Shown here: piece by piece, positions 1,321 to 64,000 of the stretch
Numbering within the stretch: position 1 is the stretch's first letter
Layout of the letters: each line of letters opens with the position of its first letter
Assembly (NCBI GenBank): GCA_964016885.1
Contig: OZ024754.1
Location: 25,358,001-25,422,000 of the forward strand
Reading direction: 5' to 3'
DNA from: Eledone cirrhosa
Lineage: Eukaryota
Length of the DNA: 64,000 nt
Program-made: the position numbers and the translations under genes
Notes under the pieces: model-generated
Database searches by the model: none
What the model was told of the DNA's origin: nothing
What the model saw: the letters and a program-made list of their open reading frames with translations, nothing else

Positions 1321-3834
1321 CACGTTTGTTTACGAAAGGACAAACCGAGCATTATAATAAATTTTCGCTAATCTGATACATACATATATATATGTGTGCC
1401 TTTATGTATATATATATATACATGCTAATATTTAAGTAAGTGCCAGTGAAAAATTTCATTTCATTTCATGTTATTCTATTTTATCGTTTTCAGTGCTGAA
1501 ACTCACTAGATATGCAAATCAGGCTGCTCAGCCGTTAATTACCATAAGGAAAGTTCGAACCTTCGAAAGTTCAACCATCTGGCAGAAGGGTATACGGTGT
1601 TGACGATAGCTAACAAGCTTGAAACTAGTACATCGTTCCTGTGTCAGTATTGAACAAAAAGGTGACGTGGTTGCCTTAACACCGTACGGCATAAACCGAG
1701 CTGTCCGTTTGTTTACAAACTGACAAAGCGAGCATTATAATAAATGTTCGATAAACTGATACGTGATATATATATGTGTGCCTGTATATGTATATGTGTG
1801 CCTGTATATATATATATATATATATATATATATATATATATATATATATATATATATATATATATATATATACATACTACTGCACGTCTATATGCATATA
1901 TGTATGTAAGTATACATACACACTTACATTTAAGTAAGTGACGTGCTAAGAGTGAGAAATTTCATTTCATTTCATTCTATTCCATTTTATCGTTTTCGGT
2001 ACGCCTGGCCGTTTGAACTCACTCGATATGCAAATTAGGCTGCTCAGCCGTTAATTTTCATAAGGAAAGTATATACTTTCAAACGTTCAACCATCTGGCA
2101 GAAGGTTATACGGTGCTGACGATAGCTAACAAGCTTGAAACTAGTACATCGTTCCTGTGTCAACGTTGAAAAAAAAGGTGTCGTGGTTGCCTTAACACCG
2201 TACGTTTATTTACAAACGGACAAAGCGAGCATTATAATAAATGTTTGCTAAACTGATATGTACATATATATATGTGTGCATTTATGTATATATATATATA
2301 TATATATATATATATATATATATATATATATGCTACTGTACGTCTGTATGCATATATGTATGTACGTATACATACATACTTACATTTAAGTAAGTGAGTG
2401 AGAAATGAAATCTCATTTCATTCTATTCCATTTTATCGTTTCCGAGGCGCCTGGCCGACTGAACTCACTCGATATGCAAACTAGGCTGCTCAGCCGTTAA
2501 TTTTCATAAAGTATATACTTTTGAACGTTCAACCATCTGGCAGATGGGTATACGGTGCTGAGGATAGCTAACAAACTTGCAACTAGTACACCATTCCTGT
2601 GTCAGTGTTGAACAAAAAGTTGACGTGGTTGCCTTAACACCGTACGGCATAAATCAGGCTGTCCGTTTGTTTACAAAAGGACAAAGCGAGCATTATAATA
2701 AATTTTCGCTACATACATATATATATGTGTGCCTTTATGTATATATATATATACATGCTACTGTACGTCTGTATGCATATATGTATGTACGTATACATAC
2801 ATAATTACATTTAAGTAAGTGCCAGACTAAGAGTGAAAAATTTCATTTCATTTCATTGTATTCTATTTTTTTGTTTTCAGTGCGCCTGACCGACTGAACT
2901 CACTCGATATGCAAATTAGGCTGCTCAGCCGTTAATTATCATAAGTTCGAACCTTCGAACGTTCAACCATCTGGCAGAAGGGTATACGGTGCTGACGATA
3001 GTTAACAAGCTTGAAACTAGTACATCGTTCCTGTGTCAGTATTGAACAAAAAGGTGACGTGGTTGCCTTAACACCGTACGGCATAAACCAGGCTGTCCGT
3101 TTGTTTACAAACTGACAAAGCGAGCATTATAATAAATGTTCGTTAAACTGATACATAATATATATATGTGTGCCTGTATATATATATGTGTGCCTGCATA
3201 TATATATATATATATATATATATATATATGTATATATATATATATATATATATATATATATATATATATACATACTACTGCACGTCTATATGCATATATG
3301 TATGTACGTATACATACATACTTACATTTAAGTAAGTGCCGTACAAAGAGTGAGAAATGAAATTTCATTTTATTCTATTACATTTTATCGTTTTCCATGC
3401 GCCTGGGCGCCTGAACTCACTCGATATGCAAATTAGGCTGCTCAGCCGTTAATTTTCATGAGGAAAGTATATACTTTCGAACGTTCAACTATCTGGCAGA
3501 AGGGTATACGGTGCTGACGATAGCTAACAAGCTTGAAACTAGTACATCGTTCCTGTGTCAGTGTTGAACAAAAAGGTGACGTGGTTACCTTAACACCGTA
3601 CGGCATAAATCAAGCTGTCCGTTTGTTTACAAACGGACACAGCGAGCATTATAATAAATGTTCGCTAAACTGATACTTACATATATATATATATGTGTCC
3701 CTGTATGTATATATACGTCTGTATGCATATATGTATGTACGTATACATACAAACTTACATTTAAGTAAGTGCCGTACAAAGAGTGAGAAATGAAACTTCA
3801 TTTCATTCTACTCCATTTTATCGTTTTTGGTGCG

Positions 3835-3999
3835 CCTGTATATATATATATATATATATATATATATATATATATATATATATATATATATATACAGGCA
3901 CACATATATATATTACGTATCAGTTTAACGCTTTGTCCTTTTGTAAACAAACGTACAGCCTGCTTTATGCCGTACGGTGTTAAGGCAACCACGTCAACT
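3835..3999 (-). repeat. Inverted satellite fragment fixed in one monomer of each HOR
   Basis: (TA)n-CAGGCACACA...GGCAACCACGTCAACT is the reverse complement of the monomer 3' part. It recurs at ~8549, 13245, 18407, 23099, 27761 and 29213. Confidence 0.93.
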
Positions 4000-62600: not shown

Positions 62601-64000
62601 ATTATAATGCTCGCTTTGTCCGTTTGTAAACAAACGGACAGCCTGATTTATGCCGTACGGTGTTAAGGCAAACACGTCACCTTTTTGTTCAACACTGACA
62701 CAGGAACGATGTACTAGTTTCAAGCTTGTTAGCTATCGTCAGCACCGTATACCCTTCTGCCAGATGGTTGAACGTTCGAAAGTATATACTTTCCTTATGA
62801 AAATTAAAGGTTGAGCAGCCTAGTTTGCATATCGAGTGAGTTCAGTCGGCCAGGCGCACGGAAAACGATAAAATGGAATAGAATGAAATGAAATTTCATT
62901 TCTGACTCTTAGTACGGCACTTACTTAAATGTAAGTATGTATGTATACGTACATACATATATGCATACAGACGTACAGTAGCATGTATATATATATATAT
63001 ATATATATATATATATATATATATATATATATATATATATATATATATATATATATATATATATATATATATATGTATATACATACAGGCACACATATAT
63101 ATATATAACGTATCAGTTTAGCAAACATTTATTATAATGCTCGCTTTGTCCGTTTGTAAACAAACGGACAGCCTGGTTTATGCCGTACGGTGTTAAGCCA
63201 ACCACGTCACCTTTTTGTTCAACACTGAAACAGGAACGATGTACTAGTTTCAAGTTTGTTAGCTATCGTCAGCACCGTATACCCTTCTGCCAGATCGTTG
63301 AACGTTCGAAAGTATATACTTTCCTTATGAAAATTAACGGCTGAGCAGCCTAATTTGCATATCGAGTGAGTTCAGTCGGCCAGGTGCACCGAAAATGATA
63401 AAATGGAACAGAATGAAATGAAATTTCATTTCTCACTCTTAGTACGGCACTTACTTAAATGTAAGTATGTATGTATACGTACATACATATATGCATACAG
63501 ACGTACAGTAGCATGTATATATATATATATACATAAAGGCACACATATATATATGTACGTATCAGTTTAGCGAACATTTATTATAATGCTCGCTTTGTCC
63601 GTTTGTAAACAAACGGACAGCCTTATTTATTTCGTACGGTGTTAAGGCAACAACGTCACCTTTATGTTCAACACTGACACAGGAACGATGTACTAGTTTC
63701 AAGCTTGTTAGCTATCGTCAGCACCGTATACCCTTCTGCCAGATGGTTGAACGTTCGAAAGTATATACTTTCCTTATGAAAATTAAAGGTTGAGCAGCCT
63801 AATTTGCATATCGAGTGAGTTCAGTCGGCCAGGCGCACCGAAAACGATAAAATGGAATAGAATGAAATGAAATGAAATTTCTGACTCTTAGTACGGCACT
63901 TACTTAAATGTAAGTATGTATGTATACGTACATACATATATGCATACAGACGTACAGTAGCATGTATATATATATATATATATATATATATATATATATA

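Follow-up and report, generated by a model that had tools for sequence, protein, structure and literature searches.

The window, which is the whole stretch of DNA that was analysed (64 kb of Eledone cirrhosa, contig OZ024754.1), contains 93 hammerhead cores, 70 on the plus strand (1600–34185) and 23 on the minus strand (51984–63721). A previous reading made from the sequence only had regarded positions 1321 to 64000 as one array of ~95 units. The number of units is close to the 93 cores found, but the units form two opposed arrays, and the region 34393–51770 between them is a 17.4 kb nest of Penelope-like elements (PLEs). Measured from cut to cut the monomers are 432–679 nt long with a median of 475 nt, in agreement with the ~465-bp unit of the earlier reading, and the differences in length stem mostly from the internal (TA)n. 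The right array has 63 cores in total and reaches ~21 kb past the window; none of its monomer types is common to both arrays. No open frame of at least 120 aa was found in the satellite parts within 33000–53000. The features are as follows.

1321–34392, plus strand: left array of the putative retrozyme, 70 cores (53 intact, 17 defective) in a ~4.7 kb 10-mer higher-order repeat; begins mid-monomer and finishes in the monomer's own (TA)n
3545–4028, plus strand: rearranged monomer in which an internal inversion deletes the helix I 5′ strand; 7 repeats within the higher-order unit
33205–33247, plus strand: type I hammerhead in intact form, given as an example; 5′ strand of helix I at 33205–33210, core starting at 33211, U-U at the base of helix II and AACA in its loop, palindrome ACUAGU as helix III, cut predicted after 33241
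33942–34376, plus strand: example monomer, non-microsatellite part, 433 consensus positions numbered R1–R433
33992–34001, plus strand: short insertion end of dispersed copies (R50–60), at the loop of a small hairpin
34052–34059, plus strand: long insertion end (R113–118)
34393–47005, mixed strands: Hydra-clade-like PLE, a minus-strand tandem with ~3.57 kb period and broken frames plus an inverted copy with a 593-aa open frame (44417–46198, plus strand); 3′ end inside the (TA)n of the left array, right border approximate
47136–48491, minus strand: 5′-truncated PLE with reverse transcriptase and C-terminal GIY-YIG
48836–51770, plus strand: Neptune-like PLE, 5′-truncated and broken, 3′ end inside the (TA)n of the right array
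51771–64000, minus strand: right array of the putative retrozyme, 23 cores in the window, 20 of 23 intact, 9-mer higher-order repeat

The invariant core CUGANGA / GAAA / UH in type I order is present in 73 of the 93 units of the window and in 31 of 42 loci that were picked by a non-ribozyme anchor. A type I motif descriptor, a check proposed by the sequence-only reading, likewise matches 73/93 units, and among dinucleotide shuffles of one monomer (n = 5000) it gave three loose and no strict matches. Thus, the claim that every unit carries the fold holds for these 73 units but not for the remaining 20, of which seven are without the helix I 5′ strand, nine carry A13C, two A6C, one C3U and one A15.1U. 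Helices I, II and III have 6, 4 and 2 bp, and helix III is the palindrome ACUAGU; this fits the canonical metazoan type I form with ~6 bp in helix I, ~4 bp in helix II, 1–2 bp in helix III and a small palindromic loop (PMC4209133). When a real monomer is folded as a circle, helix I extends over 10 + 6 + 7 = 23 pairs, as had been stated before, and the sequence variants quoted earlier are indeed found (at 4467–4509 and, for N7, at 32758, 33656 and, on the minus strand, 51984). Past pair 6 there is a conserved internal loop in which one U is invariant and unpaired; loop 2, rich in A, is conserved as well, and by analogy with known hammerhead structures loop 1 and loop 2 may form a tertiary contact. 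The pair G10.1–C11.1 is absent in the retrozyme family, where this position is U-U. This mismatch had been raised as a caveat; it is present, but its weight is reduced because the axolotl hammerhead HHR_Amex2, which shares the mismatch, does cleave, and more so in dimeric form (PMC7229834), and because, once related families are taken in, 7 of 15 rows have G-C or C-G at the base of helix II. The mismatch lowers the claim of a fully canonical hammerhead and leaves the assignment as a hammerhead standing.

It could be argued that in the whole family the motif either matches by chance or is a dead relic. The Rfam search suggested by the sequence-only reading found no hammerhead, neither at gathering score in the whole window nor at E ≤ 10 in 5500–6400, the matches being (TA)n-driven ones to microRNAs only. 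Helices II and III are weak, and the isolated 73-nt motif is predicted to adopt a misfold 3.9 kcal/mol below the hammerhead fold. For dimers, the predicted double-hammerhead fold is better than two single ones by 2.8–6.3 kcal/mol (5/5 dimers) and lies 1.4–5.3 kcal/mol above the minimum. The monomer circle is predicted to be strongly self-paired with the ribozyme domain closed in 4/4 monomers (z −6.7 to −12.2, inflated by (TA)n; control 0/40 shuffles per monomer). Among predicted retrozyme dimers of Xenopus only 1/9 was cleaved in vitro (bioRxiv 2026.07.22.740005).

Nevertheless, we regard a chance match or relic as improbable, given the lack of strict matches in the shuffles and the conservation across families. 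When one unit of the major subfamily is set against the window consensus, 0/31 core positions differ, compared with 64/303 outside the ribozyme domain. The helix I pair 2.3–1.3 occurs as five pair types and is unpaired in 0/41 distinct rows, and when the second retrozyme family (~70% identical in the best block) is added, 7 of 16 pairs, in helices I and II, change on both sides. Covariation measures based on pair counts were no better than shuffles (393/500; 158/500 with the second family). That the core is more conserved than the remaining sequence is borne out by the individual cells (14/536 differ in the core, 553/8796 elsewhere; 42 of 55 loci, chosen by the non-ribozyme anchor), but not by the test on columns, which is not significant (0/13 versus 32/219, P = 0.22). 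The variation within the window, previously taken to support the fold, carries little weight, since the 91 monomers comprise only 27 types, repeated in higher-order units; it is the compensatory changes across subfamilies that do support it. Families that otherwise differ widely have retained core and helices, with compensatory changes, so that the fold appears to be under selection, and we assign the motif to the type I hammerheads on its predicted fold and conservation.

The arrays of the window themselves may well be inert. According to this explanation, which we consider somewhat probable, they are derived from a retrozyme, have grown only by unequal exchange, are silent and experience no ribozyme selection. 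The 27 monomer types are repeated with higher-order periods of 10 on the left and 9 on the right, the 17 defective units among the 70 of the left array were amplified along with the others, and the junction of the inversion lies inside the repeat unit. In addition, the nest has a 99.64% identical copy at a distance of ~299.6 kb; beside that copy the arrays have 41 and 20 units, beside the nest itself 70 and 63. On the other hand 73 of the 93 units are still intact, and the silence of the arrays is an assumption. An inert array is compatible with a retrozyme nature of the family as a whole: the window arrays need not be the source of a mobile RNA, as they look like DNA-level expansions carrying dead units.

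Exact matches to a 31-nt core number 24,157 in the genome (control 0), and many of them are dispersed. Together with the subfamily covariation and the conserved core at the anchor-picked loci this dispersal upholds the type I hammerhead and retrozyme of the sequence-only reading. At their ends the dispersed copies run into (TA)n, and they do so at two fixed positions that lie ~55 nt from each other. We scored 170 3′ ends in 111 loci; 86 belong to the short class and 81 to the long one, and 153 of the 167 classed ends adjoin (TA)n, counts that depend on end classes set after the data were seen and later widened. Inverted insertions combine one long and one short end in 47 of 50 pairs. The 5′ ends, by contrast with these fixed points, are scattered over R136–393; only 3/108 lie within R270–280, that is, there is no peak at the cut site, and 186 alignments span the cut. 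A tail and the inversion pattern have been described for PLEs (PMC8557442), and the tail pattern has been tied to two internal starts of reverse transcription (PMC11167929). We therefore interpret the ~55 nt between the two ends as a PLE-type tail, judging from the mapped ends. The second retrozyme family shows the same order of hairpins and the same two ends, and the same end pattern is present in Neptune-like and Hydra-like PLEs of this genome.

Non-autonomous Helitron-like elements, too, have hairpins, tandem arrays and a microsatellite in their interior. A Helitron-type or other DNA-level rolling-circle element with an incidental hammerhead-like motif is nevertheless highly improbable: such an element should have fixed 5′ and 3′ termini, whereas here the 5′ ends scatter and there are two 3′ ends. 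Alternative 3′ ends that pair up in inverted insertions are, like random 5′ truncation, marks of PLEs, and the Neptune-like and Hydra-like PLEs of the genome share the pattern.

Within the nest, the Hydra-like assignment relies on a CxCX5C motif (PMC8557442), with no Pfam match. Assigning the element at 47136–48491 to Naiad was rejected because its endonuclease is C-terminal. PLE families with long open frames, as expected of autonomous PLEs, are abundant in the genome. Our search for a partner covered few PLE families: homology of the terminal repeats (pLTR) to the monomer was found neither in the Neptune-like family (20 loci) nor in the Hydra-like family (23 loci), the termini of which gave only microsatellite-like matches, one degenerate repeat copy (L147) and a short TCTATTC motif. 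Three flanking Hydra-like copies likewise had no detectable homology to the monomer. At one locus (L106), a single lead, the monomer directly joins a truncated Hydra-like copy whose 3′ region is without homology to the monomer. A PLE protein match lies within the flanks of 10/113 loci, which is, by a rough estimate, what the PLE density predicts. Two pattern searches for variant hammerheads returned further retrozyme families and no PLE termini among the loci examined (30/299 and 30/11,340).

Hammerhead satellites are known, and thus the array itself is no surprise. Schistosoma Sm-alpha is a satellite array with a hammerhead in each monomer. The same holds for newt satellite 2 (PMC7229834) and for Dolichopoda pDo500; all three are likened here by description, and the Rfam models do not match the motif of the window. 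Closer relatives are the metazoan non-LTR retrozymes of coral, mussel and axolotl (PMC7229834; bioRxiv 2026.07.22.740005), which are likewise non-coding tandems of a few hundred bases with one type I hammerhead each, low GC, self-paired RNA, copies ranging from monomers to long arrays, and PLEs in the genome. What differs here are the mapped ends, a (TA)n target inside the monomer itself and the higher-order arrays. The median monomer is slightly longer than the 150–450 range of PMC7229834 and falls within the 51–972 of bioRxiv 2026.07.22.740005. Compared by motif features, axolotl HHR_Amex2 (Rtz_353; PMC7229834) shares the U-U base and the two-pair helix III but has a tetraloop III where a 2-nt loop III is found here. 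We describe an apparently new family of an already published kind, as judged against the Rfam models and the published descriptions.

The endonuclease-containing (EN+) PLEs of the Neptune and Hydra clades (PMC8557442) and the anole Poseidon PAc (PMC11167929) resemble our family in (TA)n targeting, partial tandems, a 5′-truncated inverted arm and a tail at one end only. Their tail is 30–40 nt, compared with ~55 nt here and 70–75 in the second retrozyme family, and they carry a minimal hammerhead, whereas here it is canonical, there is no ORF and a matching pLTR was not found. Non-autonomous Chlamys elements, for example MRC1, are also non-coding PLE dependants with head-to-tail insertions; their 3′ end is generally similar to that of the autonomous partner, and a canonical hammerhead is missing from most Chlamys (PMC8557442). 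The word 'tail' is absent from the main texts of PMC7229834 and bioRxiv 2026.07.22.740005, where 'inverted' occurs only in one reference title, and within the parts of the literature that our search covered we found neither tails nor inverted insertions described for retrozymes. The tail and inversion pattern at mapped retrozyme insertion ends is new here.

Two 3′ ends, a tail at one end only, variable 5′ truncation and a microsatellite target together point to a non-autonomous element mobilised by PLEs. We suggest, with a probability of about 0.8, that the family is a non-LTR retrozyme of ~440–480 nt, a non-coding type I hammerhead RNA that is copied into the genome in trans by the reverse transcriptase and endonuclease of a PLE; this proposal draws on the fold, its conservation, the dispersal, the (TA)n targets, the two 3′ ends, the random 5′ ends and the inverted insertions with a long and a short end. 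Tandem copies would be transcribed, neighbouring hammerheads would pair through the palindrome of helix III and cleave in dimeric form, and monomers or multimers would be ligated into circles. The PLE enzyme would then nick (TA)n, and reverse transcription would begin inside a circular or uncut RNA at two hairpin-marked sites ~215–230 and ~275–300 nt downstream of the cut. The two arrays of the window would have grown later by DNA-level duplication and would then have been invaded by PLEs that share the (TA)n target.

The insertions give a hint as to the template. A linear cleaved monomer as the main template was rejected because the 5′ ends have no peak at the cut. One insertion contains ten identical units over both arms (L255) and another is an exact ABAB multimer (L196); together with the missing peak they fit circular or uncut templates. 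Other multi-unit insertions (L048, L049, L077, L253) are heterogeneous, which counts against a monomer circle, as it does not explain them. Alternatively, the family might be a non-autonomous PLE moved from uncut linear multimer transcripts, with the hammerhead as passenger or regulator and circles taking no part in spreading. The heterogeneous multimers are in line with such transcripts, the absent 5′ peak fits equally well, and with the anole PLE, mutating the ribozyme left insertion in vitro unaffected, the RNA used being mainly unprocessed (PMC11167929). We still consider this unlikely, though a serious contender, as widely differing families have retained core and helices and show compensatory changes, identical and ABAB multimers are simplest with circles, and circles have been shown for the retrozymes of coral, mussel and axolotl (PMC7229834).

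Returning to the retrozyme copied in trans, we propose tentatively, at somewhat less than even odds, that RNA circles are copied repeatedly by a PLE reverse transcriptase that reads a conserved RNA shape and not a shared sequence. If so, the two hairpin-marked starts would be kept at equal structural positions in widely diverged families, and single events would deposit inverted multimers of at least 10 units, with dimer circles seeding higher-order repeats. Since the monomer holds the enzyme's own (TA)n target, arrays would moreover draw in further insertions and give rise to satellites. Such a mechanism would supply evidence from the genome on how animal retrozymes are mobilised and would name an RNA domain to test.

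PLEs have been regarded as a strong candidate for spreading animal retrozymes (PMC7229834), a role argued from co-occurrence and pLTR similarity, the mechanism remaining to be shown (bioRxiv 2026.07.22.740005). The 47 of 50 inverted insertions with a long and a short end and the two mapped candidate start sites provide evidence for spreading by PLEs at the level of single insertions. With this end pattern and these candidate starts the spreading machinery becomes directly testable, using purified PLE protein and circular versus linear RNA. In one genome, then, a route can be followed that would lead from a mobile RNA to higher-order satellite DNA.

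The sequence-only reading had placed a single array from 1321 to 64000. A scan for the 31-nt core located 93 hammerhead cores in the window, 70 on the forward strand (1600–34185) and 23 on the reverse strand (51984–63721). Retrozyme arrays are indeed present, but they do not form one array, as 34393–51770 holds Penelope-like elements (PLEs).

Features of the window
1–1320: very AT-rich, foldback-like, with dense direct and inverted self-matches
1321–34392, forward: left retrozyme array
34393–51770: nest of PLEs
34573 (reverse), 41731 (reverse), 43773 (forward): Hydra-like PLE with a hammerhead variant, also at sampled loci L126–L148
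48836–51770: Neptune-like PLE, of a family (also L071–L076) with two 3′ ends 39 nt apart
51771–64000, reverse: right retrozyme array
53310–53400, 53990–54080 and two later units: four right-array monomers ∼150 bp longer, of which the two examined carry an identical unrelated GC-richer insert

From cut to cut the monomers measure 432–679 nt (median 475), and the consensus comprises 443 nt once the internal (TA)n is collapsed; its numbering (R) starts at the end of (TA)n and the predicted cut follows R274. The left array has a period of 10 monomers (median 4 differences vs 29–35 at other lags) and the right array one of 9 (median 0 vs 13–20), with 27 monomer types over the two arrays together and none common to left and right. 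The left higher-order unit was amplified at the DNA level, since an inversion junction and dead copies are part of it. At the border with the nest, each array ends in (TA)n of its own, which adjoins the 3′ terminus of a Hydra-like PLE in one array and of a Neptune-like PLE in the other. A second nest copy ∼299.6 kb away (99.64% identical; 8 mismatches and 8 gaps in 17,372 nt) is flanked by 41 and 20 units vs 70 and 63 at the window nest, which points either to fast array turnover or to two haplotypes assembled in line. Two regions of the same genome, G000:C14:25050001-25140000 and 25348001-25462000, each harbor 128–144 cores with arrays in both orientations round the duplicated nest, possibly as a segmental duplication or an assembly haplotype duplication.

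The motif had been recognized correctly as a type I hammerhead: our own descriptor matches 73 of the 93 units, and gave 3 loose and 0 strict matches in 5000 shuffles of one monomer. A hammerhead in each unit had been claimed as well, but 20 units are defective; in the usual hammerhead numbering 9 carry A13C, 2 A6C, one C3U and one A15.1U, and 7 have no helix I 5′ strand. A loop–loop contact may be formed by this hammerhead. The proposed check against Rfam for a hammerhead yielded no match for the motif. With helices I, II and III of 6, 4 and 2 bp, the last with a palindromic loop, its geometry agrees with canonical metazoan type I hammerheads, which show poor cleavage on their own and adopt dimeric folds (PMC4209133). 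The U–U mismatch under helix II, raised earlier as a caveat, is present, but it is also described in axolotl HHR_Amex2, whose monomer cleaves to 22% in an hour and whose dimer cleaves more (PMC7229834). Several of the further hammerhead families also have U opposite U at this place.

Circular folds of four real monomers gave z values of −6.7 to −12.2 (0 of 40 shuffles each), which (TA)n inflates. The isolated motif is predicted to fold with C3-U4-G5 trapped on the strand of helix III, and this fold is more stable by 3.9 kcal/mol than the hammerhead fold (scored with an open helix III). For five real dimers the predicted double-hammerhead fold lies 2.8–6.3 kcal/mol below two single folds and 1.4–5.3 kcal/mol above the minimum. 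We infer from these models that the RNA would be cleaved as a dimer, perhaps with the help of a protein, by analogy with the ribozyme of the anole PLE (PMC11167929).

In the genome of 3.0 Gb, a 40-mer of the window subfamily has 660 exact matches (47 inside the window), the 31-nt core with two free positions 24,157, and a 22-nt anchor outside the ribozyme 16,576; the reversed-pattern controls gave 0. Most anchor-picked loci belong to one subfamily ∼80% identical. A further pattern gave 11,340 matches (control 16), and among the first 100 listed most are members of a second family, ∼466 nt long, whose cut site reads GUU or GUC. This family is ∼70% identical to the window family in the best block and has the hairpins in the same order, but lacks the long internal (TA)n. 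Other hammerhead families, one of them with a 310 bp repeat, occur at L072, L074, L075, L076, L094, L096 and L259, and another long sister-subfamily array, known from the match list alone, at G000:C3:12272007-12294753.

Core conservation relative to the flanks had been named as a test, and the outcome depends on the level. Among 55 loci taken by the anchor, which avoids selection on the core, 42 have a unit spanning the ribozyme, and 31 of these cores are intact. Differences from the majority are found in 14/536 core cells vs 553/8796 in the remainder (Fisher P = 1.8e-4, although cells are not independent and the four rows with misalignment at inversion junctions were retained), whereas the column-level test is not significant (0/13 vs 32/219, P = 0.22). 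The window consensus differs from one major-subfamily unit at 0/31 core positions, 5/70 in the ribozyme domain and 64/303 outside, and the core holds 2 of 17 variant positions, N7 and loop II (contigs, two runs of unknown kind, one sample). A first covariation set holds 60 sequences (41 of them distinct), of which the 28 sister rows were picked by a pattern that forces a helix II change. Its third helix I pair is found as GU in 13 rows, AU in 12, UG in 12, GC in 3 and UA in 1, and is never unpaired, and a distal pair fails to form in 21 of the 41 rows. In this set 14 cells are changed on both sides vs 5.7 for the shuffles (0/500), but the number of pairs with such changes is not above them (393/500). 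With the second family added, 7 of 16 pairs show two-sided changes (34 cells, 0/500; pair count 158/500), which represent few events because six second-family rows are close kin. Of 15 hand-picked rows including the second family, 6 have G-C at the helix II base, one has C-G and 8 have no pair.

The dispersed set comprises 111 loci, namely 29 family, 27 sister and 55 anchor-picked ones, after removal of overlapping duplicates and of two unrelated motifs. Of 170 3′ ends, taken as BLAST alignment ends within R36–149, 86 are short (R44–68), 81 long (R100–123) and 3 other, with class limits set after seeing the data, and (TA)n adjoins 153 of the 167 short or long ends. Inverted tail-out insertions combine long with short in 47 of 50 cases (2 short+short, 1 short+other; binomial P = 2e-12 on 49), and in 42 of 50 with narrower limits. 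According to PMC8557442, PLEs insert as partial tandems that include an inverted 5′-truncated copy and have a 30–40 bp tail on just one end, and the Neptune, Naiad and Hydra clades target (TA)n; in the anole PLE, RT starts at two internal sites and the tail covers the interval between them (PMC11167929). The second family has its ends at the two equivalent places: a small hairpin carries the short end at its loop, and the long end lies just past an A/U-rich hairpin. Two ends in (TA)n are likewise seen in the Neptune-like and Hydra-like PLEs of the same genome. At G000:C1:5738326-5752444 (L229–L248, L256), ∼31 second-family units form one arm beside a short inverted arm, the outer ends are short on one side and long on the other, and 22 units compared show few differences from the most frequent one; this may be one ∼14 kb insertion.

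The 108 5′ ends are spread over R136–393, only 3 within R270–280, and 186 alignments cross the predicted cut; the main template is therefore not the linear cleaved monomer. Uniform insertions exist (L255, second family, 10 identical units over both arms; L250, 3; L177, 2), L196 is exactly ABAB (0 and 22 differences) and L055 ABAB-like, and L048, L049, L077 and L253 contain mixed units. Circles could account for the uniform and ABAB insertions, and uncut transcripts of mixed arrays, or age, for the mixed ones; judged from sequence, circles and transcripts of uniform arrays would fit alike.

Both candidate partners are abundant, with 15,010 Neptune-like candidates (of which 150 were scored, with many open frames of 784 aa) and 66,114 Hydra-like ones, and no homology of the monomer to the termini of either family was found. 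We hypothesize that the partner PLE recognizes the retrozyme by RNA shape. Six Neptune-like loci scanned in the 3′ region contain no canonical hammerhead core. In the Hydra-like variant U3-A8 replaces C3-G8, loop II is long and helix III is stable; UUGANAA with variable N7 occurs in 27 of 28 motif matches (23 loci), and the canonical descriptor does not detect this variant. The same swap is known from Schistosoma Cercyon PLEs (PMC4209133). Judging from PMC8557442, the presence of Hydra-clade PLEs would point to an aquatic invertebrate host. At L106:1701-2908 (also L259) a retrozyme long end is fused without (TA)n to a 5′-truncated Hydra-like copy in the same orientation; this single case is possibly a template switch.

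The earlier assignment to the retrozymes holds: on the features testable in sequence, the window repeat is a non-LTR retrozyme as described in PMC7229834. A preprint (10.64898/2026.07.22.740005) already proposes PLE dependence of retrozymes. It describes arrays with as many as 300 units, and cleavage was found there for just 1 of 9 dimers. The main texts of both make no mention of tails, although supplements, Dfam or Repbase may hold the same observation, and in them the word "inverted" occurs once, in a reference title. The main value of the window family lies in its insertion signature.
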